Source of the DNA: a virus
Direction: 5' to 3' (one strand)
Length of the DNA: 64,000 bases
Virus record (IMG/VR): IMGVR_UViG_3300046820_000903
Span: 1-64,000 of that record
Part shown: piece after piece, positions 17,347 through 64,000 of the stretch
How positions within the stretch are numbered: position 1 is the stretch's first letter
Layout of the letters: every line of letters begins with the position of its first letter
Translations under genes and position numbers: made by a program
Notes under the pieces: generated by a model
The model's database searches: none
Told to the model about the DNA's origin: nothing
What the model saw: the letters and a program-made list of their open reading frames with translations, nothing else

Positions 17347-18567
17347 TTAATGACGGCTATGTTGTTTATGAGGAGCATAGTTAGCAGTAATACCAAACGG
17401 TGCTGTAATGTCATCACTGCCATGTACAACAAACAGCGTGTCGCAATAGTCTGGGTCGCCCCAGCTACCAAACGGATAGCCGTCTGTAAACACTACCAAC
17501 TGGTGAGGTTGAACATCATTCTGCTTCATCCATTGCCAGATGCAAGTAAAGTCTGTACCACCACCACCGGTAACCTCATACTCTGCCATGCTTCGACCAT
17601 CGTCGCCAGTAAATGTGTCTTCATTATAAATGTCAGTGTCAAATGTTACAACACGAACTTTATAAGAAGTAAACTGATCCAACGCACCTTGTACCATGCC
17701 CAAGAAGTCCATCAACATGCCTTCGTCAATAGAACCAGATGCGTCCAGTGCTACAACAATGTCAAGTTCCTCACCAGGCAATTGTCCTGGCAGTACTGCA
17801 CCAGTATGCCAAGCTTTGCGGTTAGGACGCATCCATGTGTAGTCGCTTTTAACAGAGCCACTGAACTGGATACGCAACAGGTCCTTCAAGTCCATTACAG
17901 GAGCAGTAATGTCTTTTACCAGGCGTTGAATAGCGGCCGGTGTGTTACCTGCACCTGCATTCTTGGCGGCTTGAATAACTGCCTCACGCCACTCATCGCG
18001 CAGAGCTTTGCGTTCTTCTTCTGACAGTTTCTTGAACTTAGGCTTGCCTTTACCGTCTTTACCTGGCTTGCCCTCGCCATCACCGTCTTCGCCTTCCTCG
18101 CCATCGCCTTCCATGTCCAGGTGATCGTCAAGCGTCATTTGTATAACTGTGGCATTGGCCATTAAGTCATCATATACTTCGTCGGCAGTCTTGCCTTCAT
18201 ACTTACGGTCTGCCAAGATTGGTACTGTGGTAATTGCGGTACCAACACCTTCGCGGATTAGCATGTTGTTGATAACATAGTCACCTGCCATGTTCCAAAT
18301 TTGTGGCTCACGGTCTCCGCGGCGTGTCATGTGATCAAAGATAATGTGTCCAAGTTCGTGACCAAAGCCAAAAATCATTTCACCATCTGACAACTTGCTA
18401 ACGAACTCCGAATTGTAGTAAAACTTGCGACCGTCTGTTGCAATAGTCTTGCACCATTCAACTTCTTCCAACTTTAGACGTGTCGCCAAAGGACCCCAGA
18501 AGGGATACTTCAAAAGCATAGCAACACGGCTTTTAACTAGTTTATCACGAGCAGGCAATTTAGACAT
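17347..18567 (-). CDS. Metallopeptidase-like + VWA domain protein (DUF2201-type), partner of the MoxR AAA ATPase
   Basis: TIATDG...HELGH (HExxH); C-terminal DASGS MIDAS, GGGGTDF, VFTDG. Confidence 0.9.
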   Translation of the reverse strand: MSKLPARDKLVKSRVAMLLKYPFWGPLATRLKLEEVEWCKTIATDGRKFYYNSEFVSKLSDGEMIFGFGHELGHIIFDHMTRRGDREPQIWNMAGDYVINNMLIREGVGTAITTVPILADRKYEGKTADEVYDDLMANATVIQMTLDDHLDMEGDGEEGEDGDGEGKPGKDGKGKPKFKKLSEEERKALRDEWREAVIQAAKNAGAGNTPAAIQRLVKDITAPVMDLKDLLRIQFSGSVKSDYTWMRPNRKAWHTGAVLPGQLPGEELDIVVALDASGSIDEGMLMDFLGMVQGALDQFTSYKVRVVTFDTDIYNEDTFTGDDGRSMAEYEVTGGGGTDFTCIWQWMKQNDVQPHQLVVFTDGYPFGSWGDPDYCDTLFVVHGSDDITAPFGITANYAPHKQHSRH

Positions 18568-51609: not shown

Positions 51610-52561
51610 TGATTTGTCCTTGTATCCAGTCGTATGTTTTATTCAACCCATACTCTAAGTTCTCACCAGGTGCCCAGCCTATTGTGTCTCGAATAAGTTT
51701 GTTGTGACTGTTGCGCCCCATAACTCCCGTTGGCCCATCTACATTTCTAATAGACACATTCTTGTATGCCAACTTGGCAATCAATAGAGCTAAATCATTG
51801 ATGCTGATCATACGCTCGCTACCCAAGTTTAAAGGAAACTCGCAGTCGCTGGCCATGATGCGATGTATGCCTTCTATACACTCATCAATGTACAAGAAGC
51901 TACGAGTTTGATTGCCTGGCCCCCATATCTCTACTGTGTCGCTTTCTGTGCATTGTGCTACCTTGCGACACAAGGCCGCCGGCGCTTTTTCTTTGCCGTT
52001 ATTCCAAGAACCCCAAGGACCAAAAATATTATGAAAGCGGGCAATTCTTGCTCTGATGCCATAATTGCGAGCAAAACTCATGTACAGACGCTCACTGAAT
52101 AACTTCTCCCATCCATATTCGCTGTCTGGGTCAGCAGGATACGCACTTTCTTCGCTCAGTAACGGATTGGCTGGATCCAGTTGGTTATGGCTGGGATACA
52201 TGCAGGCGCTACTACTGTAGAACACACGAGTAACACCCTTCTTGGTCATTTCATGTACAATATTCAAATTGATCATTGCTGAGTTATGTACAATGTCAGC
52301 GTCATGTTCACCAGTGAAGATATAACCTGCGCCGCCCATGTCCGCGGCCAGTTGATATATTTCGTAAATGTCTTCTGTTATCAATTGCTGTACATTGGTT
52401 TGCACACGAAGATCCATAATATGGAATTCATCTGCATCTGTAGCACTGAACTCTGGATGCTTTAGGTCAGCACCAATTACATAGTGACCTAGTCGTTTTA
52501 AATCAGTCACCAAGTGACTTCCAATGAAGCCACCGGCTCCGCATACTAATACTTTTTTCAT
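51602..52561 (-). CDS. NAD-dependent epimerase, GDP-mannose 3,5-epimerase-like
   Basis: GAGGFIG, QLAADMGGAGYI, SSSACMYP, YGWEK, KEKAPAALCRK. Confidence 0.9.
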   Translation of the reverse strand: MKKVLVCGAGGFIGSHLVTDLKRLGHYVIGADLKHPEFSATDADEFHIMDLRVQTNVQQLITEDIYEIYQLAADMGGAGYIFTGEHDADIVHNSAMINLNIVHEMTKKGVTRVFYSSSACMYPSHNQLDPANPLLSEESAYPADPDSEYGWEKLFSERLYMSFARNYGIRARIARFHNIFGPWGSWNNGKEKAPAALCRKVAQCTESDTVEIWGPGNQTRSFLYIDECIEGIHRIMASDCEFPLNLGSERMISINDLALLIAKLAYKNVSIRNVDGPTGVMGRNSHNKLIRDTIGWAPGENLEYGLNKTYDWIQGQINE

Positions 52562-54066
52562 TCTGATGGTTCTATAATAGTTGTTGAAGGCTGATTGTAG
52601 TTGCCTGTTTTGGCTATTTCTTTAGCCAATTTACTTACCTCATACTCTCTTTGACACCTGTCAATGAAGGTAACCATTTCAGGGAACACTTCCTTGAAGT
52701 TGGTACCATTGCGCTTGTCATGCTCTTGTATGTACAAATAAAAATCATGCCGGGCAACAACGTTTTCTCGTTTGTTTGGATCCTCAGCCTTGATAACGTT
52801 CAGTAGTCTTGCCAAGTTATCTACTTCATGCTGATAAAAGCCATCCTGATAGTCCACGTATTCAAATTGGCCCACATTTCCTGTCATCCAGTTCACATGC
52901 TTTTCCAATGTTTCTATCAGGCCTGGGCCTGCAATCAATGCACTTAAATGCCTGGGATGACGCAGGTATGGGAAGTCAAGTGTGACGCCACGAAGGCCAC
53001 TGACCTTATGTTCGGGTGTTGGTGATCTACGTATTGCAAGAATATCTTTTAAGAAATTTCTAAATTGTGGAATACTCAATATATTGAATGTACACATGAT
53101 TGTCACATCCAACTCTGGATAGCGTAGAGCCAAGTTCCATAAGTTGTAGTACCACTTGTTATAGTCCAGGCCTACACGAACATATTCGGCTTGCTTGCCC
53201 CATGTATCACAAGACGTAAAGATCTTTAAATTTCTAACCTTGCCTTCACGTTTAATTTGTTGACATTTCTCAAAGAACTTGTCAATGATGTCTTGGTCAA
53301 CACCCAGGTTAGTATTAATGGCCAGTTCTAAGTCAGGATTAGGATTTTCAATGATCCAGTCTAGTGTGCGGAATGTTTCTTTGCTTAGTAAGGGTTCGCC
53401 TCCAGTAATACGAAATACCTTTAATTCAGGATATAGTGTAGGCCACCACTTCCACCATGCGTCGATATAAGGGTTGACGTCCTTATTTGGAATAGGCATG
53501 CGGTTTGCGCTTTCCAACCAGGTAATATCTTGTGTGACAGATTGACTGAGTTTAATAGCACCATGGCGCTTGGCAGACTGCATTAGTGTACTGCTGATCT
53601 CTGGACTGCAATAACCACATCCAAAGTTACATACATTACTAAAACTCACTTCCACGTAGGCTGGAACAACATCTGCATCCCAGGGCAGTTTAGAACTGGA
53701 TTCTAAGAATGGTTCTCCCCAGACTGTATCAGCACTTTTCTTTGTACGATCCGAAACGTATGTGCCATCATTACCTGGAGCATCTTCTACTCGCCAGCAG
53801 TAGTCGCACTCTTTGGGACGTTGACCTTCCAGCATTAGTTTACGAGAGTGCTTCTTGTGCCAGGTATTGTGCAAGGCACTGGGATTGACTACAATTTCCT
53901 CTAAGGGAATTTTATGTGGACTGGGATGATGACACGAGTGTGTTTGCCCAGTGGCCAAATGAATGGTTACTTGTTGCCATTTGGCCACACAATAAGTGGG
54001 GCTGACCTTGTCCAATTCTTTATGAATACGGATCAGTCTGTCGTTGTATTGTTCGGTAATTGCCAT
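52558..54066 (-). CDS. Radical SAM protein with N-terminal twitch/SPASM-like Cys cluster
   Basis: CVAKW...SCHH...CDYCW; CNFGCGYC; ITGGEPLL; start MAITEQ 5 nt after TAAATA. Confidence 0.88.
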   Translation of the reverse strand: MAITEQYNDRLIRIHKELDKVSPTYCVAKWQQVTIHLATGQTHSCHHPSPHKIPLEEIVVNPSALHNTWHKKHSRKLMLEGQRPKECDYCWRVEDAPGNDGTYVSDRTKKSADTVWGEPFLESSSKLPWDADVVPAYVEVSFSNVCNFGCGYCSPEISSTLMQSAKRHGAIKLSQSVTQDITWLESANRMPIPNKDVNPYIDAWWKWWPTLYPELKVFRITGGEPLLSKETFRTLDWIIENPNPDLELAINTNLGVDQDIIDKFFEKCQQIKREGKVRNLKIFTSCDTWGKQAEYVRVGLDYNKWYYNLWNLALRYPELDVTIMCTFNILSIPQFRNFLKDILAIRRSPTPEHKVSGLRGVTLDFPYLRHPRHLSALIAGPGLIETLEKHVNWMTGNVGQFEYVDYQDGFYQHEVDNLARLLNVIKAEDPNKRENVVARHDFYLYIQEHDKRNGTNFKEVFPEMVTFIDRCQREYEVSKLAKEIAKTGNYNQPSTTIIEPSE

Positions 54067-54085
54067 AATGTTATTTAGTATGTAG

Positions 54086-55387
54086 TTAATCCCATAAGGT
54101 TTCAATTGCTTCTACAACTTGAGTTGAGATTAGTTGATCCATAAATGCCTTGTTGGTCAGCAGATGTCTATTGTGCTGTATTGTTGGTTGGCACTGGAGT
54201 AATAGTGCGGCAAAGTCTGCTTCACTTAGTGCAATGATACGCTTTAATGTACGAGTCAATTCAATTCCACGTTCTACAGGATCAGTTATGGCGTCATATG
54301 ATTCATCTATATACGGGCCAAAGGTTTTAAATCCATACTCACGTAGCTGTTGTAAGAATCCCGGAGCACCTGCCAACAAGAATATTTGTCCGTGTAGCAT
54401 GGGTTTAAAAATCTTTTCTGTGGGGAATATGGCATTGGTAAAGAAAAGTGTTTCAGTAACAAGATTTACAGGGTATTCATCGTATAGTGTGTTATTTAAA
54501 TCCAGTGCGTAGTTGATGTCAAAGCGATCTGTGTCTGCTATCAGCGGAAGTTTATTATACACTTGATTAAAACTGTTGTCAAGATTGTCAATGTAACCAT
54601 TGCAACGATCTTTAAGTAGTTGCCATTGATAAGGCAAGTCAAAGTCTTTGCCTTCCCAATTGATATCAGGTTCCGTAAAATGCTTGGGCATACTGACAGC
54701 ACCATGTTCTACAAGACCAAAGTGTTCCAGTAGCGTAACAAAGAATATGCGGTGCGGATACGGGCGCCTATTTAAACTCATAAAACGACGAGTACCAGGT
54801 TTCCATTTGGCCATTGGGATACCTAGTTCTGGCTTGTCCCTGTAGCGTTGATTAAAGTTAATCCAGTTGGCAAAGAATCCATACCAAGCACACTTCATTA
54901 ACACTGGCATCTTGTTTCTGCGGCACCATTGTAGATACACAGATTCTACGTTGCAAGTACTGCTGACATACAGCACACGATCTGCTAAGTTGTATTGTGC
55001 TATCCAATTGGTCAAGTCTGGGAATACTTCTTCCGTAAAGCCCTCTTCTGAGTAGTCAATTATAATGCGACAGTTGGCGTCATGCAATGCCAGTAGTCTG
55101 TTGGGATTGGAAGCAAACCACGAGTCAATCAGGGCCAGCTTCTGCTGATTCCATCCTCCGTGTAGACCAATGATTACTACACCACGTTCTGTGGCTTTAT
55201 ATTCATTAAATGTTTTAAATTCATTTTGGCTTTTAAAGTAATTGAAAATGATGTAGTCTAGTAGCGGATCAATTGTAAAGTTCTTAGAGCCTTCTTCGGG
55301 TATGTACTGTTTCAAGTAACGGTTCCATAAGTTCTCATCTGTAAAGTCTGGGGCAATGTAATCGCCATACCACGTGATAGTTGTCAT
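54086..55387 (-). CDS. Hypothetical protein, putative glycosyltransferase-like (paralog of 48960-50270)
   Basis: FMSLNRRPYPHR...VNLVTETLFF...PTEKIFKPM...GFKTF..IDESYD. Confidence 0.6.
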   Translation of the reverse strand: MTTITWYGDYIAPDFTDENLWNRYLKQYIPEEGSKNFTIDPLLDYIIFNYFKSQNEFKTFNEYKATERGVVIIGLHGGWNQQKLALIDSWFASNPNRLLALHDANCRIIIDYSEEGFTEEVFPDLTNWIAQYNLADRVLYVSSTCNVESVYLQWCRRNKMPVLMKCAWYGFFANWINFNQRYRDKPELGIPMAKWKPGTRRFMSLNRRPYPHRIFFVTLLEHFGLVEHGAVSMPKHFTEPDINWEGKDFDLPYQWQLLKDRCNGYIDNLDNSFNQVYNKLPLIADTDRFDINYALDLNNTLYDEYPVNLVTETLFFTNAIFPTEKIFKPMLHGQIFLLAGAPGFLQQLREYGFKTFGPYIDESYDAITDPVERGIELTRTLKRIIALSEADFAALLLQCQPTIQHNRHLLTNKAFMDQLISTQVVEAIETLWD

Positions 55388-55403
55388 GCTGATACTTATA
55401 GTC

Positions 55404-55451
55404 AAAGAAAAACCCCAACGTGCCAGGATGATCAGTCCGCAGAGGTTGGGG
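55404..55451 (-). terminator. Terminator-like long stem with internal hairpin, after the endolysin gene
   Basis: - strand CCCCAAC...GTTGGGG followed by TTTTTCTTT. Confidence 0.6.
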
Positions 55452-55461
55452 CCGTGTTAAC

Positions 55462-56097
55462 TTATTTGCTGTCAGTGTGAACTGATCGTAATACTTCTAG
55501 TATATGATGAAAGTGTGCAGTACGATCAGCTAAGCCAATTGTGCCACCGTTGATCTTTTTAGTGACTGTTGTTACATCTTCCTTGTCAGCCCATGTATTC
55601 AACTTGCGAGTATCCCAGAACCAACCTGCACTTAGTACAGCCACTGGGTTCTTGGCAACTTGATCTGGGTCTGCTACTAAGTCTAAGCCTAGTGCTTTAC
55701 CACATGATTTGTAGTTGTCTTTACCTGTCAATTGAATTACACCGCGCCCGCGAAACTTGTAGCCTTCGCCTGATGCCTCATTGCCATTGCCCATACGGTC
55801 GCAATAGGCTCTGTTTGCAATCTTTTCTGGCTTACGTGCGTATTCGTCTGCAACACCTGCAAACTTCTTAGGCCAAAAAGCCAACAATGCTTTGGCTTGA
55901 TAGTTTAAGTTTTCTTCTACTGCATTAAAGTTACCACTTTCGTGGGCAGTTTGTGCAATAAACATGGCCTGTCTTTCGGGCGTATTGATTTCAAAGTGTT
56001 CAAACGTTTCGTTTAGTCCTTCTAAGAACATAGACAAACGTTCTGACTTTGCCTGGGGCAAACATGCTTTTAACACATCCAAAGTTAATTCTGACAT
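55462..56097 (-). CDS. Glycoside hydrolase family 19 endolysin
   Basis: FIAQTAHESG, EENLNY, FRGRGVIQLTGKDNY, SAGWFW, TKKINGG. Confidence 0.93.
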   Translation of the reverse strand: MSELTLDVLKACLPQAKSERLSMFLEGLNETFEHFEINTPERQAMFIAQTAHESGNFNAVEENLNYQAKALLAFWPKKFAGVADEYARKPEKIANRAYCDRMGNGNEASGEGYKFRGRGVIQLTGKDNYKSCGKALGLDLVADPDQVAKNPVAVLSAGWFWDTRKLNTWADKEDVTTVTKKINGGTIGLADRTAHFHHILEVLRSVHTDSK

Positions 56098-56107
56098 AAA
56101 TGTCTCC

Positions 56108-57415
56108 TTATTGTATGTGCTTATTTAACAAATCAGAGGTTCCAGGTAGCGTTTTACGCCAGTCTGTGCCACGTGTAGTGTCTAAAAAGTCCATTAATTC
56201 TACGTAACGCTTAACTGCTAGTATGTTTTCAAACTTACTGTCAAAGTGATCAATTAACCATTTGTGAATAGTTCTACCTACAGGTGTGTCCCGTGTAGCG
56301 TATAACTCTGCTAATTCTTCCTTAGCTGAACGTGGTAAACTCATAACGCTGTGCATAGCAGGAGCATCAACAAACTTAACTTGGAATGGTACGCCTTGGC
56401 TGTGGACCCAATCTTCTGTTTCAAACATTGTATGTGTAGTGCTCATTTGTGTACAGCTTGTTAGTCTATGTAACTTAACAACGCCTTCTTTTTCGTACTC
56501 TTTAACTCGCTTAACGTTGCGTTGGAATGTGTCCCACGAACTTGTACGAATTAACTCAAAAGGTTCGTAAGCCGCATCAATGCTGCCGGCCAATTCAACA
56601 TGCTTGAAGTGACTCCAACGCTGTGCTAATTTGTCGTTAATAACTGACAAGTTAGTATCGTAGTCTAAGTATACTTCTTTAGCACGACCTGACGCAATAA
56701 TACGATCTAGCATTTCGTCGTGTGCAGGAACAATCATTGGTTCCCCGCCTGTGATGTAGATATGTTCTAGTGTAGGTAGTAGTTCATCAAACTTAGACCA
56801 CCATATGTCAGTTTCCCACCAACGTACTTCTTTTGGATTAAACAGCTTGCCGTGTTCGTTGCGTTCTAGTTTAACTCTAGGATGACCAAAGCCCCAAGGC
56901 ACTTCTAAATTATTATTGTTAAATCCAACCCAGTCTTCATACCATTGGTTTGAGTAGCTGGGTCCACAGTGAACACACTTTTGGTTACATAAGTTTCCAA
57001 AGCGTATGTCTAGTGTTGTTGGATTCCATTTGACATAGCCATTTTCGTCCATGTCTGCATTCATATAAGTGGCAGGACTTACTATGTTTGTGCTTGGATT
57101 ACGGCGCTCCATGCTTTGTCTACGACTAGCATTAATGTTCTTTGGATCGCCACCTGTTGCGCTTTCACGCTCACTACAGCATGAGCACAAGTCATGCCAC
57201 CCGCCTTGTGTTTTTACATCATTAATGCGAACTGACCTATGCCACTTACCATTGAGCCCTTGATTAGGCGTGTGTGTCATAATGTTCATTAACTTGCCGT
57301 TCTCATCAAGAGCCATGCCCTCGTTCATTGTTCGACTGTTAGTTAATGCACATATCCTATAATCGCCAAGAGGGGTTATCATCAACCCCTGCCACGGCAG
57401 TCTACAAAAAGCCAT
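56108..57415 (-). CDS. Radical SAM protein with N-terminal twitch/SPASM-like Cys cluster
   Basis: FCRLPW...IC...CSCC; CNQKCVHC; ITGGEPM. Confidence 0.88.
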   Translation of the reverse strand: MAFCRLPWQGLMITPLGDYRICALTNSRTMNEGMALDENGKLMNIMTHTPNQGLNGKWHRSVRINDVKTQGGWHDLCSCCSERESATGGDPKNINASRRQSMERRNPSTNIVSPATYMNADMDENGYVKWNPTTLDIRFGNLCNQKCVHCGPSYSNQWYEDWVGFNNNNLEVPWGFGHPRVKLERNEHGKLFNPKEVRWWETDIWWSKFDELLPTLEHIYITGGEPMIVPAHDEMLDRIIASGRAKEVYLDYDTNLSVINDKLAQRWSHFKHVELAGSIDAAYEPFELIRTSSWDTFQRNVKRVKEYEKEGVVKLHRLTSCTQMSTTHTMFETEDWVHSQGVPFQVKFVDAPAMHSVMSLPRSAKEELAELYATRDTPVGRTIHKWLIDHFDSKFENILAVKRYVELMDFLDTTRGTDWRKTLPGTSDLLNKHIQ

Positions 57416-57418
57416 TGT

Positions 57419-60049
57419 TTACTTTCGGGCTAAAAAGCCCTGAGAGTTACGCTTGTATCCTTCTGGGATTAGCTTTACTTGTTTATCCAACATACAGAAG
57501 TATTCGTTTTCCTTTAATTGTGCAGATGCGTTTACAAGTGCTTGATCAAAGTTTTCATTCTTTTGTTTGTTGTGAATAGTCCACATTGTGGCATACGCAC
57601 GTTCTGGATTGTCTTTATACTGCTTTAGTAATTTCTTTTCTAAGTCTTGATCAAAGCCAGGAGGTGCGCTTTCTTTAACTTTTTTGTTGTCCTTCTTTTC
57701 AGGACGCTTGCCACCAGTTTCTTTTTCTAGACGTTGTAGTAATTCTTCATCACTGCCGCCACCCAGCTTGTCAAATGCTTTTTTAGCGCCTGCTTTGATA
57801 GTGTCAATAATACCTTCATTTACAGCAGGAGCCATTGACCTACGGCTTTCAGCCACTTGTTTGATTACAGCTTTAGCGGCTTGTGCTTGTTCTGGAGGTA
57901 ACGTAGCAATTTTAGACTGTGTATATTGTTCTACTTTGTCATCGCCGCCTAGTTTCTCAGAGGCCATGTCCCATAGTTTTTCTACACCCTTCATGCCTAA
58001 CTTTGCCGCACTATAAGCGCCATAAGCGGCCATTGGGATACCAAGTAATGGGCCTAAGATACCAACAATAGCTGGAGCACCTGCTGCCGCAACAACACCT
58101 AATCCAAGACCGCCGGCAAACTTAGCCAATGCAGGAGCGTCTTCTTCTACACCACGTTCGCCAGGAACGCTGCCACGAAAGTTCTTTTGCTTGTCTAGTA
58201 CAGCTCGCATCTTGGTCATAATACGATCAAATGCACGAGCATCTGTTAAAGCACGTAAGAACTCTTCTTGACGGCCAGCTTTCATAAAAGACTTATAACG
58301 TCCGCCAACAAAGCGAGCTTCTGGATATTCTAATGTAATTGGCTCACCACCAACCATGATTTCAGCATCTTGCCCTTGTTCAACGGCTTTTAAAATGCTT
58401 AGTATGTTCTTACGGCCTTGTTCCGATTCCATATTTGCTTCCTTAATTTTTGTTACGTTTTCAACCTTAGGATCTATGCCTTGTTCTTTTTGGCTTAGCA
58501 AATAGTCCCAAACACTTGTTGTCATCATTTCTGCTTTGGCAATTTTTTCTTGCGCCCATTCTGGCAAGTTATCGTTGTCGCCAATTGTGTCCATTAGGCC
58601 GTTGACCGCTCGAGCCATGGTACGCAGATTGCTTTTGGCCATACCTGCTTCGTCATCGTATTCAGGATTACTGGCTTCAGTCATACTTTCACCCATGCCA
58701 GCTAGATTCTGTTCTACTTGTTTAACCCATCCTGACACATCACTGCTACCGATTTCTTCTACATCGCCTACAAAGTCAGCAACTTCATCCACTGCCGCTC
58801 CTACCTTTTCTGGGCCGTGTTTGGCCAATAGGTCTGTGCGTTGCATTAGAATACGACGAATAATGGCCTGTGCTACTGGTGAGTCTTCATCACCAGGATT
58901 GTCCATCATGCCTTCCGCCACACCTTGTTCTAAGCTTTCGACAATTACGCCTAAGCCTTTATTACCTGTGCCTTCTTTATTTGGACCAAGAATTTGAGTG
59001 ACTCTGACTTTTTTACCGTCATGGGGACCACCGTTTACTGTAATTATATTACCTACTTGTCTATTAGGCTTAAGGTTAAGTTTAATCTCTTGCGGTGCAG
59101 AATTTTGTGGTTGTGCTGATTGTTGCGGAGGCTGTTCTTGCTTTTGTGCAGGTTTGCTACCCTTCTTCCACTCGTATACCTCGTCATTCAATGAAGCTCT
59201 ATATGCTAATACAAATTGTTTTTCTGACCCCGACCTGTAAACAAAGTTGTCAATTTTAGATATTTTAACTGCTTCTTTGGTTGCATTGTCAATTGCTTGT
59301 TTTGCATTATAGCAGTCAGTTAATTCACAATACTTTGTAACCAAATCATACACATTAGTTGCCATGTACTCCATTGGAGAAATACTATCTCCGGTAGAAA
59401 TTTCTATGTCGGCGGACCTAAGTCTAATTTTTAATCCGCCAGTGGCATCTGTTAGCGCCTTACCAGCATAATTAGCCCAGTAACCTGGCCCTTTAGCTTG
59501 TGCCAATGTTGGTAAACCTGCGCCAGCTACAGCGGCAGCTCCGGCACCCAAGCCTTTTAAGAATCCTCTACGGTCGATTTCTTCTAAACTGCCTTCCGCC
59601 ACACCTTCAGCAGGCTTGTCTTTCCAAGGCTTCCACATACCGTGCTTGTGATTATCTACAATGTATAGTGTATGTGTGACAGAGCCGTCTTCATTCTTAG
59701 ATTTTTCTACATCAACAACTTTTTTAGCACCCCATTCGTTCTTGTCAAACATGTATTCTTCATGGTCAGCAGTTGCTTCGTCTTGTGCCTGGATAACGTA
59801 TAACTTGTTATACTCTTTACCGTTAGGAGCAGATCCTTCTTGGTCAACATACTTTACAGCACGTTTCTGTGTGAATGCTTTGTGTTGAGCTTGACGTTGT
59901 TGACTAATAGCATCTTCGTCATCTGCGGCCTGTTGAGCAGGGCTAGGACGTGGCTCGCTGGGAACTCGAGCCTTAGGTTTAGCATTTAGCGCCGCATAAT
60001 AATCGACGTCGCTGTCAAAGTTGCGTGGATCTACTTCGTTGATTTTCAT
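57419..60049 (-). CDS. Large acidic modular protein, probable virion-internal polyprotein
   Basis: Starts MKINE; many hydrophobic-x-E junctions (GVAEG x2, MTEA, IKEA, VEED, VNEG, VKES); contains an internal Tat-like signal and a hydrophobic segment. Confidence 0.7.
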   Translation of the reverse strand: MKINEVDPRNFDSDVDYYAALNAKPKARVPSEPRPSPAQQAADDEDAISQQRQAQHKAFTQKRAVKYVDQEGSAPNGKEYNKLYVIQAQDEATADHEEYMFDKNEWGAKKVVDVEKSKNEDGSVTHTLYIVDNHKHGMWKPWKDKPAEGVAEGSLEEIDRRGFLKGLGAGAAAVAGAGLPTLAQAKGPGYWANYAGKALTDATGGLKIRLRSADIEISTGDSISPMEYMATNVYDLVTKYCELTDCYNAKQAIDNATKEAVKISKIDNFVYRSGSEKQFVLAYRASLNDEVYEWKKGSKPAQKQEQPPQQSAQPQNSAPQEIKLNLKPNRQVGNIITVNGGPHDGKKVRVTQILGPNKEGTGNKGLGVIVESLEQGVAEGMMDNPGDEDSPVAQAIIRRILMQRTDLLAKHGPEKVGAAVDEVADFVGDVEEIGSSDVSGWVKQVEQNLAGMGESMTEASNPEYDDEAGMAKSNLRTMARAVNGLMDTIGDNDNLPEWAQEKIAKAEMMTTSVWDYLLSQKEQGIDPKVENVTKIKEANMESEQGRKNILSILKAVEQGQDAEIMVGGEPITLEYPEARFVGGRYKSFMKAGRQEEFLRALTDARAFDRIMTKMRAVLDKQKNFRGSVPGERGVEEDAPALAKFAGGLGLGVVAAAGAPAIVGILGPLLGIPMAAYGAYSAAKLGMKGVEKLWDMASEKLGGDDKVEQYTQSKIATLPPEQAQAAKAVIKQVAESRRSMAPAVNEGIIDTIKAGAKKAFDKLGGGSDEELLQRLEKETGGKRPEKKDNKKVKESAPPGFDQDLEKKLLKQYKDNPERAYATMWTIHNKQKNENFDQALVNASAQLKENEYFCMLDKQVKLIPEGYKRNSQGFLARK
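58909..59607. repeat. Perfect 18-bp direct repeat TGCCTTCCGCCACACCTT (58909-58926 and 59590-59607) encoding GVAEG
   Basis: Both copies read directly; spacing 681 bp = 227 codons, so in frame. Confidence 0.9.
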
Positions 60050-62163
60050 TTTCTTAATACACTTTTCATAAACTGTGTGGCCATTGCTTGCGCTTCGCTA
60101 ACTGGCTTCATGTGAGTACTTAGCCCGATACTTTCTTGGGCTGGTTGCTTACTAATATCATGGAATCCAAAGCGGTCTACCATTAGGTATGTACTGCCCA
60201 CTTTCATAATATCGCCAACGCTCATGCTGGTGTGTCCTGTGTTGCTTTGATTGATTAGATCACGTGCTTCTCCACGTGGACTCCAGTTTTCACCTTGCAT
60301 CATTGAAAACACTTTGTCTGGATTAGTTTCACGTAGTGTACCAATTTGTACATGTGTTTGTTCCAGTGTTTCTGGTGTGGGCATTTGACCCTTCTTGGTC
60401 AACCAGTTGGCACCCATCATCATGTCACGGCCTGCTTCATCGTTCCAGTACCAAACTTCTGTGCTGCCTTCTGGGTAAGCATCAGACAAGCTGGAGTATT
60501 GTGTAGCCGCAGGTCCTGCTTCTGTTTGTAATTCACGCTCGCCAAAGTAGTTTAACATTTGACGGAAGCCTTCGCCATCGTTTAGTGTTTGTTGCATTAT
60601 GGCCTTGCTTTCTGGCTTTAACTGATCAAACTTGCTTAGGATCTTGTTGGCTGTTTTAGCACTGATAGTAATGCTACTACCGTCGGCCAAGGTCATTGGC
60701 TGTGGCTTATCGTAGTCAGCTTGACGACGAATCTGCATGATAATGTTCTTGTCTGCTGATGCTTGATCAGCTGGTGTAGCTTCATCTTCTTCAGCTTCGG
60801 TTACCGGTGCCATACCGCCTACTTCACGATCTAGTTTGTCAGCAATCCATTGTACTGGATCACCTTCACGTGCTTTGGCAACACCATAAGGCATTTCACC
60901 ACTGTTTAAATAATAATCAAATAAGGCTTCGTAAAATTCTGGATTATCATCAATTTCGCCGCCAGCTTTAAATTGTTTAAATGAATCTGCAAATTGATCT
61001 AAAATACTTTCTAATTCCGGATCAACAATTAGGCCTTCATTTAAATCAATTCCTAAATCTTCAGCAAATAATTCACCAATTTCGTTGTCATCATCTGCGT
61101 CACGTTGTGCTTTATAACTTAGACGATCATAGTAGTGAAAGTGTAGATCTGTTTCTAAAGCTTGACTTAGTTCGCCGCCGGCTTTAAAGTGCTCTACAGC
61201 TTCTTCATTGTTGGCAATGATTCTGGCCAACTGTGGATCCATACGGTATTCAGCTTCTTTAACTTCGATGCCAGCTTGACGTAAAACAGCAATGTTGTCA
61301 TCGCCCAATTCTTCTTCGTCATCTAATTCCAATTGACCGTTCTTGTTAAACGTTACATTGGTTGTACCGCCTGTTTTGTCAAACTGTGGCTTAGGCGCAG
61401 AACTGGTAGCGTTGCCCATGTTGGGAGTATTGCCGCCTGCACGACTTGGAATAGTGCCTGTAGTACCAATTGTACCAAAGCCTTCGCTTACGCTTTCATT
61501 TTGTATGCCTGTTGTATGTGGGTGACGTACATAATAAGCTTGACCGCTTGCACTGATATAGTGTGGTAGTCGTTGTCCGTCACCGTCCATAAACTCTAAG
61601 TCACGTGCGCTAATGCGTGTAATACGGTTGTCCATGTCATAAAGAATTAGAAACTTGCCGTTTTGGCTCATACGTGCTTGGTCATATACCTTCATACTAC
61701 GTCCGTCGGCTGGTAAACCATATTGCTGGCGAGTATCTTGTCTAACACGATCTGTTTCTGCACGACGAATTTCATTTTGACGAGCATTATAAATTCTACG
61801 CTGTGTTTCACGTTCTGCTTCACGTTGACGAACTAGTTCTTTATAGTTAGGGCTAAAAATATCTGCCATGTGACGACCAACGCTGTATTCTGTGCCAGGA
61901 TGACGATTCTGTCCTGGCGTACCTGTATTCTGAGCATGTGCCCCGCTCATTGCAACACCAGCGGCCATTGCTGCCGGAATAATCTTTCTGGCAACATGTT
62001 GTAGGATGTCTTTACCAGCTTCGCTTAGGTCACCTTCAACAACAACAATGGTGTCAAACGGGTCTTTAAACTGCTTGACCTGCTGAAGCACAATGCCTTC
62101 ATGTAGACGACTGCTAATTTGCTTAACAACACGACCTTCACGGACTAATTGAATACGAATCAT
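60046..62163 (-). CDS. Large acidic modular protein, probable virion-internal polyprotein
   Basis: Junctions LSEA, VSEG, VKEA, LNEG, VTEA; internal signal-peptide-like segment; C-terminal GHTSMSVGDI (YodL-like). Confidence 0.7.
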   Translation of the reverse strand: MIRIQLVREGRVVKQISSRLHEGIVLQQVKQFKDPFDTIVVVEGDLSEAGKDILQHVARKIIPAAMAAGVAMSGAHAQNTGTPGQNRHPGTEYSVGRHMADIFSPNYKELVRQREAERETQRRIYNARQNEIRRAETDRVRQDTRQQYGLPADGRSMKVYDQARMSQNGKFLILYDMDNRITRISARDLEFMDGDGQRLPHYISASGQAYYVRHPHTTGIQNESVSEGFGTIGTTGTIPSRAGGNTPNMGNATSSAPKPQFDKTGGTTNVTFNKNGQLELDDEEELGDDNIAVLRQAGIEVKEAEYRMDPQLARIIANNEEAVEHFKAGGELSQALETDLHFHYYDRLSYKAQRDADDDNEIGELFAEDLGIDLNEGLIVDPELESILDQFADSFKQFKAGGEIDDNPEFYEALFDYYLNSGEMPYGVAKAREGDPVQWIADKLDREVGGMAPVTEAEEDEATPADQASADKNIIMQIRRQADYDKPQPMTLADGSSITISAKTANKILSKFDQLKPESKAIMQQTLNDGEGFRQMLNYFGERELQTEAGPAATQYSSLSDAYPEGSTEVWYWNDEAGRDMMMGANWLTKKGQMPTPETLEQTHVQIGTLRETNPDKVFSMMQGENWSPRGEARDLINQSNTGHTSMSVGDIMKVGSTYLMVDRFGFHDISKQPAQESIGLSTHMKPVSEAQAMATQFMKSVLRK

Positions 62164-62164
62164 T

Positions 62165-64000
62165 TTATTTTACCTTTTTCCAATCTATGCTAGGCACAGT
62201 ACTGTTTTTATTAACGAAATCTGGCTCTTTGCTTTTGCTACCTGTTAACTCTACAGGCTCCTTGCCTGTGATAGCTTTAACAGCGTCTCTGATCATTTTA
62301 TTTTCTTCATCTGTATAAGCATAGGCAAACGGACCAGCATTTGGTCCCAGCACTACTTTGTCACCGCCGCGGTTACCAGCCACGTGAATAGCATAACGAT
62401 AAAAGCCATAACCAGGATCAGTGTTTAAATGGAACATTCCTTTAATAATACTGGCCTGCTCTGGATTCATTTTATCTTCTTTAAGATAATGGTGAATACC
62501 TTCTACAATACGTTGTGCTTGCTTTACACGATGCGTATACAATTCCAATGTCGTCATACGCTGTGAGCACTCACGCATGAAGTTAGACTCTTCATCTGTA
62601 ATACCACGCGATCCACGACCACCTTTACTGCGAATACGCTTTAATTCATTGTATGCCGCAACAATAGTATTTAATGTATTTGTCAACTGCTTGATGTTCT
62701 CAGCGGCACGACGGAAGCTGCCACCGTGTTCTACTTTAAGGTCTGCGGCCATTGCGTCTGCTTCGCGGCGTGCTTTATCACGTAACCCGCCTAGAGTATA
62801 ACGACCTGCGCCACCCAATACTAACACTTCTGTGTCTGTCATTGGTTTATCTCGATCCAAGCGATAGATAACATTTTTATGATCTAATACATGTGCTTCT
62901 TTTGCAATCTTTGTATTACGGCGATTATTCATCCACTCTTTATATTGACCAAATTCATGTGGACTTAATGAAACATTATTTTTCACTTTCCAAACAATTC
63001 GCTGAATTGTTTCTGGAATATCTTTATCAATTTTACTGAAATAATCACGCATGGTAGTAAGTTTAGTTGGATCTTTTGCATCCGTATTACCTGCAAAATA
63101 ATCACGCATGGTAGCTAAACTAGATTCAAATACACCTTGCCCAATGTAAGCAGGACCTGGAGTGTACTTTTGTCCCACTGCGGCACGTGCGGCTCTACGC
63201 CTGGCTCGACGACTACGACCACGTGTCATTGGATAAGCCACTACAGCAATGTCTGCACTTGTTGTGGCACCCGGAGACGCACCACCTTCGTCTTCCATGA
63301 CATTGCCTTCTGCTAGACCATGCTTCTTCATCAAACTATAAATCTGACTGCCTGGCTTGACTGGTTGTCCAGATTTTAAAAACGCATCAATCATGCCCAA
63401 TTCTTGTTGCTTGCGTTGTGCAGACGTATCAACAGCAGGTGTTGCATTAGTGTTGCTATCGTCGTCACTGATGTCGTTGGGCTCATAATACCAGCCCATG
63501 CCCGGATCATCACTGCCAGTTTTTGCTGGATTATCAAACTTGAAATAGGCAATTTGTGTTTTGCCCCAGTAGCCTTTGAATTCGCCAGTGGCATCATTCA
63601 TGTCTTCTCGATCAAAATGATCTGCTTCAAATCGACCAAAGAAATCTATACTACGACGATATGACTCTGGCTTGGGATACTTGTAAGGATCTTCTCCATT
63701 GTCATCATCTCTGCCGTGCCCATTTGAAAATTCTTCTAAGTCTTTTTTGGCAAAGTTATCATTGTGGAAACTACCAACAATGTACCATTTTAAATCATGA
63801 TCAACATCATTGTGTTCTACGCCTATTACGTTGACATTGTAACCTCGATCGTCAAACCAACTGTTGGCATAACCCACTAGATTTTGTTTGGCTTTTTCGC
63901 CACGTGTATCAATGTTAAATCCATCGTTGCTGACATCAAATTCTTCAAACCAATCATCACCAATGATATCAGCAAGCTCGTCATCTGAGTACCAACGTCC
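62165..64000 (-). CDS. Large acidic modular protein (5'-truncated by window)
   Basis: The frame stays open from 63877 to the window edge (GRWYSDDELADII...); junctions LEEF, GLAEG, VMED, VFES, LKED. Confidence 0.75.
   Translation of the reverse strand, partial: GRWYSDDELADIIGDDWFEEFDVSNDGFNIDTRGEKAKQNLVGYANSWFDDRGYNVNVIGVEHNDVDHDLKWYIVGSFHNDNFAKKDLEEFSNGHGRDDDNGEDPYKYPKPESYRRSIDFFGRFEADHFDREDMNDATGEFKGYWGKTQIAYFKFDNPAKTGSDDPGMGWYYEPNDISDDDSNTNATPAVDTSAQRKQQELGMIDAFLKSGQPVKPGSQIYSLMKKHGLAEGNVMEDEGGASPGATTSADIAVVAYPMTRGRSRRARRRAARAAVGQKYTPGPAYIGQGVFESSLATMRDYFAGNTDAKDPTKLTTMRDYFSKIDKDIPETIQRIVWKVKNNVSLSPHEFGQYKEWMNNRRNTKIAKEAHVLDHKNVIYRLDRDKPMTDTEVLVLGGAGRYTLGGLRDKARREADAMAADLKVEHGGSFRRAAENIKQLTNTLNTIVAAYNELKRIRSKGGRGSRGITDEESNFMRECSQRMTTLELYTHRVKQAQRIVEGIHHYLKEDKMNPEQASIIKGMFHLNTDPGYGFYRYAIHVAGNRGGDKVVLGPNAGPFAYAYTDEENKMIRDAVKAITGKEPVELTGSKSKEPDFVNKNSTVPSIDWKKVK
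63039..63114. repeat. 19-bp direct repeat AAATAATCACGCATGGTAG encoding TMRDYF twice
   Basis: Copies at 63039-63057 and 63096-63114, 57 bp apart. Confidence 0.8.

Follow-up and report, generated by a model that had tools for sequence, protein, structure and literature searches.

Codon-locked in-frame joints between the modules of a mosaic phage gene, and a natural allele lacking one Tat-signal cassette

Why should one phage gene carry the same 18 nucleotides twice, in a single reading frame and alike even at silent positions? The gene encodes an 876-residue protein, P0001, and lies on the minus strand of a 64,000-nucleotide stretch, here called the window, which is the first 64 kb of the 82,291-bp IMG/VR virus contig IMGVR_UViG_3300046820_000903 (G000; CheckV completeness 25%). 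An earlier note on this DNA had proposed that the repeat bounds a cassette that can be inserted or excised in frame, and that it also encodes a protease site releasing each module. The reading favoured here, with a probability of about 0.6, is that the repeat belongs to a family of joints that are codon-locked, in-frame swap points between modules and probably also cut sites of a prohead protease. The features from which the argument starts are given below; X1 is one of four lake sequencing runs, P0023 a related protein, and Tat stands for twin-arginine translocation.

57419–60049, minus strand: 876-residue mosaic 'polyprotein' gene (P0001), whose start overlaps the stop of a 705-residue gene (ATGA)
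59590–59607, minus strand: upstream joint copy, encoding (E)GVAEG, E148-GVAEG153; an X1 contig departs from the reference here and resumes at 58908 downward
58909–58926, minus strand: downstream joint copy, encoding (Q)GVAEG, Q375-GVAEG380; an X1 contig ends at 58926
58913–59593, minus strand: 227-codon cassette, residues 153–379, comprising a Tat-signal module that has a helical core, a spacer rich in Q and P, and a small beta part at the C-terminal end that closes with QGVAE; absent from P0023
59495–59590, minus strand: Tat signal peptide, residues 154–185, SLEEIDRRGFLKG...LAQA (DRRGFLKG...LAQA); Pfam TAT_signal

The repeat and the allele without the cassette

The two copies of AAGGTGTGGCGGAAGGCA, at 58909–58926 and 59590–59607 on the minus strand, match exactly, and the window holds no third copy at up to three mismatches. 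They are spaced by 681 bp, or 227 codons, and both are in frame in P0001, as the earlier note had described. Shuffled versions of the window gave a mean of 0.04 matches to the 18-mer, with two or more copies in 0 of 100 shuffles, and the flanks of the two copies are unrelated on both sides. The 13-mer core GGTGTGGCGGAAG, searched with up to one mismatch, occurs at these two sites only in the 82,291-bp contig, and its reversed control gave no match. On direct reading, the 18-mer shows neither dyad symmetry nor a palindrome.

Both copies are spelled xAA GGT GTG GCG GAA GGC A. In the open reading frames (ORFs) of the polyproteins, GTG accounts for 12–13% of Val codons and GCG for about 7% of Ala codons, which makes these codons of the repeat atypical and agrees with the claim that the copies share a GC-rich spelling at synonymous positions. 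The related peptide GLAEG, placed by the note near 63305–63320 with different codons, indeed reads GGT CTA GCA GAA GGC (63305–63319), in ordinary codons.

A form without the 681 bp, which the note had suggested looking for, exists. P0023 (512 residues), encoded on a separate 5,983-bp JGI/IMG contig, starts with MWKPWKDKPAEGVAEG, identical to P0001 residues 138–153, and passes after the joint straight into MMDNPGDE..., that is, residues 381–876 of P0001, to the end. Over the BLAST segment covering P0001 residues 375–876 the two proteins are identical at 501 of 502 positions, the lone difference being the E or Q that precedes the joint. P0023 is P0001 less exactly residues 153–379.

The same junction appears in Logan contigs (k = 31) from the four lake runs, aligned to the region. 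A 4,117-nucleotide contig of run X1 follows the window over 59590–60500 and continues with 12 letters equal to 58897–58908, a string unique in the window; this junction is a loose end matched by hand, as the contig alignment itself listed no joint. Two other X1 contigs complete the picture, one ending at 58926 and the other starting at 58897 and entering the cassette. Any 31-letter word spanning the 18-nucleotide repeat is necessarily derived from reads, and both alleles were therefore present in the X1 sample. A contig of run X3 extends through the upstream joint into the cassette. Contig depth in X1 is 6.5 in the cassette part (58897–59361) and 15.8–19.8 in the flanks, with 59457–59573 uncovered, and X3 leaves 58989–59222 uncovered; such depths and holes prove nothing here, and the contigs give no allele frequency. 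A natural allele missing precisely these 227 codons, and otherwise near-identical, is thus supported by two results, and the near-identity on both sides of the junction marks the event as recent.

A clade-wide joint between changing modules

What the window shows is the local version of a linker found across the clade, (Q/E)GVAE(G/A), with the DNA consensus (C/G)AA GGT GTG GCG GA(A/G) G(G/C)N. A search of viral contigs with P0001 gave 51 loci, in which (Q/E)GVAE(G/A/S) stands up to five times per protein between unrelated segments. A second set of 10 loci, fetched through the Tat-signal peptide of the cassette, includes a 1067-residue ORF with eight GVAE copies, all spelled GGT GTG GCG GAA. 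As a 15–18-mer, the joint is repeated up to eight times in single genes of other phages, again with unrelated modules between the copies.

Codon choice was assessed at the 61 loci found by these two unrelated peptide patterns, with G000 and the loci fetched by the motif itself (L058–L067, L079–L099) excluded. Each flank context was counted once, copies sharing six residues upstream or downstream with a counted copy being dropped, which reduced 94 copies to 60; counts that included motif-fetched loci (36–41 of 48; 52 of 70) are biased and were replaced by this test. The spelling GGTGTGGCG was found in 44 of the 60 independently flanked GVAE copies (28 loci), against 0.4% expected from the codon usage of the same ORFs, a suppression of synonymous variation that the note had anticipated. 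By codon, the shares at the joint are 53/60 for GGT (background 0.42), 49/60 for GTG (0.13) and 51/60 for GCG (0.07), and the set fetched by the Tat signal has the locked spelling in 15 of 15 copies. The binomial P value for this codon lock is tiny, but the common descent of the copies exaggerates its significance.

An adjoining domain of about 80 residues served as control. At its conserved four- to six-fold columns the modal codon has a mean share of 0.59 (range 0.33–0.85), and pairwise third-position identity is 0.44; the silent sites of this domain are largely randomised at the divergence concerned, with a few exceptions. The tripeptide VAE without a preceding Gly uses GTG in 7 of 17 cases and GCG in 4 of 17, and a GVAE in an unrelated ORF of the window's contig is spelled GTA GCC.

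The joint is also confined to one frame and strand. The exact 11-mer GGTGTGGCGGA has 10 matches in three of five large contigs, all beside the polymerase gene and on the coding strand (reversed control, 0), and 21 matches in four of five further contigs (control, 1). All 21 checked 11-mers are in frame as G-V-A-E within the longest open frame, in line with the single frame proposed for such genes in relatives. Four cultured phages, the capsid relatives PA5oct, CBB and Phosso and the cyanophage S-WAM2, have no exact 11-mer. Full-text searches of open-access papers and preprints turned up no account of such a joint, and none of the papers with 'GVAEG' in that text concerns phages.

The Glu codon of the joint varies with the next residue, the GAG/GAA counts being 6/6 before Ala and 2/28 before Gly (Fisher P 0.004; joint copies in L003–L077). 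The choice preserves GGAGG or GGAAGG, the fourth GG run of the joint, and could mirror either two subfamilies of the repeat or a constraint at the RNA or DNA level.

Between the joints, P0001 is a mosaic. Besides the cassette, three of its parts recur in other proteins:

59608–60049, minus strand: N-terminal module, residues 1–147 (MKINEVDPRNFDSD...WKPWKDKPA), shared by P0022, P0024–P0027, P0029 and P0036, with different modules after it
58676–58912, minus strand: module X, residues 380–458 (MMDNPGDEDSPVAQAIIRRIL...GESMTE), which follows the cassette in P0001 but precedes the Tat module in P0003 and P0024
58478–58675, minus strand: conserved helical domain of about 66–80 residues, residues 459–524 (NPEYDDEAGMA...DNLPEW.QEKIAKAEMM..VWDYLLSQ), found by tblastn at 51 viral loci

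Splitting the proteins at the joint yields modules of fixed length (160, 227, 152, 90 and 65 residues) whose neighbours change between contigs. The share of BLAST segments ending within two residues of a joint is 8.6%, with a random expectation of 1.7% (n = 2544); for segment starts it is 4.8%, with 1.9% expected (n = 2485). Among 531 database proteins related to P0001 (E <= 1e-10), the closest share residues 1–147 and the C-terminal third and differ in the middle. There, P0025 and P0027 join the N-terminal module directly to module X, two different modules with QGVAEG at their borders stand in P0022, and P0024 has the Tat module further downstream, bounded by GVTE; whole modules thus come and go at the joints, as had been expected of orthologues. 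P0003 has module X ahead of the Tat module, opposite to P0001, and G004 places a different module, ending QPVAEG, ahead of the 80-residue domain. Contigs of other phages (X4, X5) match the reference only to 58909, 58931, 59544 and 59608, and with these limits read as joints, homology between phages breaks at joints. The repeat therefore marks module boundaries, the same modules recurring with different neighbours between joints: coding motifs flank variable segments and the exchanges map to the motifs, which is the pattern of in-frame, motif-mediated shuffling. The direct adjacency of the N-terminal module and module X in the orthologues P0025, P0027, P0029 and P0036 hints that the two-joint form of P0001 may have arisen by insertion of the cassette.

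The 80-residue domain is 44–82% identical among the loci (best tblastn segment), mostly 70–80% if the domain alone matches, and lies in open frames of 224–1609 residues. It is far better conserved than the remainder of P0001, though the polymerases of those phages are 55–59% identical. Distant copies form the ends of small hypothetical proteins in T4-like cyanophages (Synechococcus phage S-WAM2, L105:3638–4177), and a tblastn search of cultured phages with P0001 matched nothing but this domain, in cyanophages. The domain may serve as a core- or DNA-binding anchor. The modules of P0001 are unmatched in PA5oct and CBB, and the virion proteomes of these phages are therefore uninformative for P0001; the PA5oct record carries 'ESI-MS/MS' notes.

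Several further modules deserve mention. A Gly/Ala-rich hydrophobic stretch at about residues 640–680 of P0001 (57970–58110, minus strand; APALAKFAGGLGLG..AAAGAPAIVGILGPLLGIPMAAYGAYSAAKLG) is kept in orthologues and is a possible membrane segment. A Cys mini-module (C-W-x-G-Y-K-x-x-G-T-K-x-K-G-x-x-x-V-x-x-C-V) is part of polyproteins in lake phages (L005, L039, L016/L036) and in S-WAM2 lies inside a separate small gene (L105:3033–3641) adjoining the gene with the 80-residue domain. Joint-bearing polyproteins of relatives include LysM and phage lysozyme domains (L009:1963–6777) and cytidylyltransferase-like and peptidoglycan-binding domains (L048:5410–7638); these hint at cargo directed to the envelope.

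Putative cleavage and competing explanations

Three related contigs, G003, G004 and G006, encode a T4-type head module consisting of a T4 portal, an acidic core protein, a Peptidase_S77 prohead protease, a gp22-like scaffold and a gp23 capsid protein. The protease matches Pfam with E values of 1e-26 to 1e-27 in G003 and G004, and that of G006 is 64% identical to that of G004; for gp23 the E values are about 1e-97 in G003 and G004, and the G006 protein is 73% identical. The capsid proteins of all three have ALTE|G or ALLE|G close to the N-terminus. The T4 protease gp21 cleaves after L/I-x-E, and replacing the P1 Glu by Asp prevents processing in T4, according to the available excerpts of PMC9026906. 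The joint has an invariant Glu, a hydrophobic residue at P3 and a small one at P1', and boundaries with a decayed or different DNA motif still encode hydrophobic-x-E (GVTE, SVTE, SMTE, PVAE). This likeness suggests that V-A-E|G is probably a cut site for a T4-type prohead protease. The P0001 protein may be packaged in the virion. The targeting tag of T4 reads MKTYQEFIAE. Its processing positions are a hydrophobic residue at 8 and Glu at 10 (PMC9026906, same excerpts), a pattern that the 757-residue neighbour of P0001 fits with Leu 8 and Glu 10 of its start, MKLRELTLNE.

The note had also remarked that the enclosed segment looks like a self-contained protein with its own signal peptide, and both a Tat signal and stand-alone homologues were found. 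The Pfam TAT_signal score is 24.4 bits (cut-off 22.7), and 12 of 12 aligned family members match the same model. The S/T/D-R-R-x-F-L-K motif, a hydrophobic Gly/Ala-rich region and an A-x-A end are all present. Searching 1.84 billion representatives gave 18 homologues of the cassette at E <= 1e-3, carried in proteins of 240–1401 residues. In stand-alone proteins (240–357 residues) the module begins at residue 10–21, and in longer ones at residue 69, 124, 163, 238 or 883. It typically ends ...PEFESV.QGVAE, and the stand-alone P0002 (55% identical) ends QGVAE-DK. The stand-alone forms have leaders of 12–20 residues, such as MKTLRETIDQLDE|ISRR, that end in L-x-E or V-D-E.

In the present allele the signal is internal, starting at residue 154, and not at the N-terminus of the protein; for it to work, the chain would have to be cut at VAE|G or LEE|I. 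The signal stands right behind the putative cut site, and the unit of signal plus domain is also seen in P0002–P0019, stand-alone and at many positions. In L045 a second RR signal follows immediately after GVAE. A structure model of the cassette has a confident four-helix core (mean pLDDT, the model's own confidence score, 62), and Foldseek matched it to no PDB entry at E <= 1e-3. Among the matches listed from the open-access literature, as far as their titles and opening abstract lines go, none reports an injected Tat substrate.

The favoured reading can be put as a sequence of steps. Identical joints would act as short homologies for the general recombination machinery of the phage, through which whole modules are deleted, inserted or swapped in frame. 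Crossing-over between two joints of one genome would delete the module between them and perhaps release it as a circle, and crossing-over between genomes would swap modules. Joints mutated to the common codons GTA and GCA would drop out, leaving young junctions to dominate the population. In this way recombination at the joint would have made the allele without the cassette, and recombination, not an RNA-level constraint, would keep the codons. The prohead protease would cut V-A-E|G and free each module; a cut at the cassette's joint would leave the Tat signal within a few residues of the new N-terminus. A RecA/UvsX-like recombinase is encoded in three of six related contigs. Ordinary short-homology recombination, which T4-type phages are known to undergo at adhesin motifs and at PeSLs (promoter and stem-loop repeats), fits better than a dedicated site-specific system. 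A bolder version, 'intragenic cassette exchange', holds that a single 18-nucleotide word is selected both as a DNA swap point and as a peptide cut site, that the modules are injected as separate cargo, and that cutting of the cassette unmasks the Tat signal, the injected protein being re-exported to the host periplasm; as a whole this is a doubtful proposal.

Several points weigh against the favoured reading. P0023 and the X1 contig possibly come from the window's own sample and thus may be one observation, and the allele pair is an outcome that gives neither the mechanism nor the direction, deletion or insertion. Eighteen base pairs is short for T4-type homologous recombination; a paper on PeSLs cites 'small (<50 bp) patches' (PMC2839356). 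The shared descent of the joint copies inflates the binomial P values, and certain silent positions in the control domain are also 85% fixed. As to the putative cleavage, P3 of the joint is Val whereas T4 sites have Leu or Ile, and the N-terminus of P0001, MKINEVDPRN, with Pro 8 and Asn 10, lacks the hydrophobic-8/Glu-10 pattern of the T4 tag. The window's own 82-kb contig (25% complete) has no protease or capsid gene, so that this part leans on relatives. One relative, G007 (342,865 bp, 99% complete, holding L068; polymerase 56% identical), has five joints, and searches of it with Pfam, with the relatives' proteins and by tblastn of 40 kb at each end matched neither S77 nor gp23 nor the T4 portal; G007 does have a T4-like terminase and a RecA-like gene.

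The absence of a detected S77 protease from this joint-bearing genome is also what would be expected if the joint were a mere flexible linker of an uncut, multi-domain 'polyvalent'-type protein and the Tat-like stretch a membrane or anchor segment, and the conserved hydrophobic stretch at about residues 640–680 of P0001 points the same way. Such a linker would hardly require six conserved residues, Q-G-V-A-E-G, with an invariant Glu and hydrophobic-x-E variants, a degree of conservation that exceeds the needs of a spacer and matches T4-type sites. Nor would it account for stand-alone homologues whose Tat signal follows a 12–20-residue leader ending in L-x-E or V-D-E, or for 12 of 12 members scoring as Tat signals; we regard an uncut linker as rather improbable. 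The codon lock could alternatively serve an RNA- or translation-level purpose, with recombination as a by-product, the candidates being a purine- and G-rich pause site, a Shine-Dalgarno-like GGAGG/GGAAGG or a two-layer G-quadruplex (GG-TGT-GG-C-GG-AA-GG). The GAG/GAA choice that keeps GGAGG/GGAAGG, and the placing of the rare GTG and GCG exactly at module borders, may speak for such a role. However, start codons do not regularly follow the joints, two repeat subfamilies related by descent explain the GAG/GAA pattern equally well, and neither the break of inter-phage homology at the joint nor the exact joint-to-joint deletion allele is explained by it, so that we consider this account unlikely.

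A dedicated enzyme, either a site-specific recombinase or a homing-type endonuclease acting on the 16–18-bp site, would make the locus a true intragenic integron-like system, as the earlier note had suggested. It would account for conservation of the site beyond the needs of the peptide in phages with polymerases only 55–59% identical, and an HNH endonuclease family protein is encoded in the window at 17347–18567, elsewhere than the mosaic genes. Against it, Pfam and PHROG scans of both flanks found no integrase, recombinase or endonuclease beside the locus, the joint has no dyad symmetry, and no circular form was seen, although contigs would not reveal one; a dedicated enzyme appears very unlikely. 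Of the integron-like proposal, the in-frame module swap point stands and the dedicated site-specific system, with no recombinase nearby and a non-palindromic site, does not. A leftover of tandem duplication, or a chance match, was ruled out by the shuffles (0 of 100), the unrelated flanks and the recurrence of the joint in other phages, up to eight times per gene and with its codons locked; the probability that either explains the repeat is practically nil. The favoured reading of the joints, as swap points and probable cut sites, is the one carried into the comparisons below.

Genomic setting and relation to known systems

The two genes upstream of P0001 are also mosaic:

60046–62163, minus strand: 705-residue mosaic gene in the same coupled gene run, with no Pfam or PHROG family
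62165–64000, reaching 64438 past the window, minus strand: 757-residue mosaic gene, starting MKLRELTLNE and containing the GLAEG at 63305–63319

The three genes are translationally coupled, by the overlapping ATGA and by a one-nucleotide gap. PHROGs returned no family for any of the three proteins, and Pfam, run on whole P0001 and on its pieces, returned TAT_signal only, otherwise sub-threshold noise. A DNA search of the P0001 gene against 50,697 phage records gave no match. The late promoter TATAAATA does not occur in the contig; an ATAAATA lies 7 nucleotides upstream of the start of the 757-residue gene and is not relied on as a late promoter. On both flanks, Pfam and PHROG identify genes for radical SAM enzymes, an endolysin, a desaturase and a cyclase, along with curli genes. 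The radical-SAM-domain proteins number three (515, 435 and 506 residues) and flank the mosaic genes at 52558–57415 (minus strand) and at G000 66016–67536 (plus strand), as does the endolysin at 55462–56097. Past the window, G000 69571–79565 encodes a CHASE2-adenylate/guanylate cyclase, an amidoligase-like protein, a protein combining F5/8-type-C with curlin repeats, a FecR-like protein and CsgG.

GC content is 0.37–0.47. The family-B DNA polymerases of the window and of G004 share 86% identity, against 55–59% between the window and eight other large contigs, and the closest cultured phages by capsid protein (63–65% identity) are PA5oct, CBB, GAP32 and Phosso. All 21 public runs with parts of the 876-residue gene are freshwater, lake or aquatic metagenomes. 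The head module of its relatives and the freshwater origin of all runs identify the window phage as an uncultured freshwater T4-type giant phage, whose own head genes are outside the sequenced fragment.

Gene shuffling at short conserved sequences is known in phages, as is the loading of varied proteins into the head behind a short tag cleaved by a protease. In this clade both ideas may be fused in one word, a peptide resembling a cut site that is encoded by DNA with fixed rare codons, the spelling being held across phages otherwise diverged to saturation. If this is true, it explains how a giant phage can renew its set of injected proteins one module at a time while the reading frame always stays intact, and the joint is a natural standardised connector for cleavable fusion cargo. 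What the window contributes is this precise pair of alleles together with the Tat cassette: the wild pair with and without the Tat module makes the recombination half testable in public lake metagenomes, and the internal Tat signal raises the question of whether an injected phage protein is sent on to the periplasm.

The nearest parallel for the cargo is the set of T4 internal proteins (IPI, IPII, IPIII and Alt), which have only the targeting sequence in common, as stated in the accessible part of PMC3012670. As in T4, the relatives have a T4-type head module (S77, gp22-like, gp23, portal), and diverse, unrelated cargo of fast turnover is linked only by a short peptide ending in hydrophobic-x-Glu. 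Unlike the T4 tag, which is N-terminal and occurs once per gene, the joint is internal and occurs up to eight times per gene, with Val at P3 and DNA fixed at silent sites; its cutting and packaging are predictions.

For the shuffling itself there are two precedents. In the tail-fibre adhesins of T-even phages, the glycine-rich motifs of gp38 and the boxes of gp37 are recombination points (PMC3157838, in the text available), and there, as here, shuffling takes place within an ORF with the frame kept. The adhesin motifs, however, make up the core structure of a single folded domain, with loops as the exchanged segments, whereas here whole unrelated modules are exchanged at protease-like sites; a codon lock on rare codons is not described in the available part of that source. 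PeSLs of T4-type phages mediate modular shuffling and the formation of mini-circles (PMC2839356, PMC4122927, both in excerpt). Recombination between neighbouring PeSLs deletes a module and can form a circle able to re-insert, for which the general recombination of the phage is thought sufficient in the portion of PMC2839356 available. Like PeSLs, the joints are short dispersed repeats that bracket non-essential modules. PeSLs are intergenic, regulatory and tens of bases long and move whole genes, in contrast to a coding joint of 15–18 nucleotides that moves protein parts; a PeSL cassette was rejected as an identification, the joint being inside the ORF and in frame in 21 of 21 checked cases.

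With integrons (attC x attI, IntI) the locus shares an array of unrelated cassettes and a recurring site at each boundary. Here, unlike in an integron, the cassettes are translated as one chain. No IntI-type tyrosine recombinase was found in the flanking ORFs by Pfam and PHROG, and there are no attC-like inverted repeats; the integron reading was rejected because no recombinase lies nearby. In its many unrelated domains P0001 resembles the polyvalent proteins of phages and conjugative elements, single chains encoded by a mobile element and believed to be delivered along with its DNA (Iyer et al. 2017, PMC5512222, in the part available). They differ in that the modules of P0001 match no Pfam family but the Tat signal, and a uniform codon-locked joint is not part of the concept as set out in that portion of the source.

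The joint system therefore resembles targeting-tag cargo, adhesin motif swapping and PeSL shuffling; it is a strict member of none of these, and it is not an integron. What appears to be new is one apparent swap-and-cut word, with rare codons fixed, that is repeated within ORFs and comes with a presence/absence allele in the wild.

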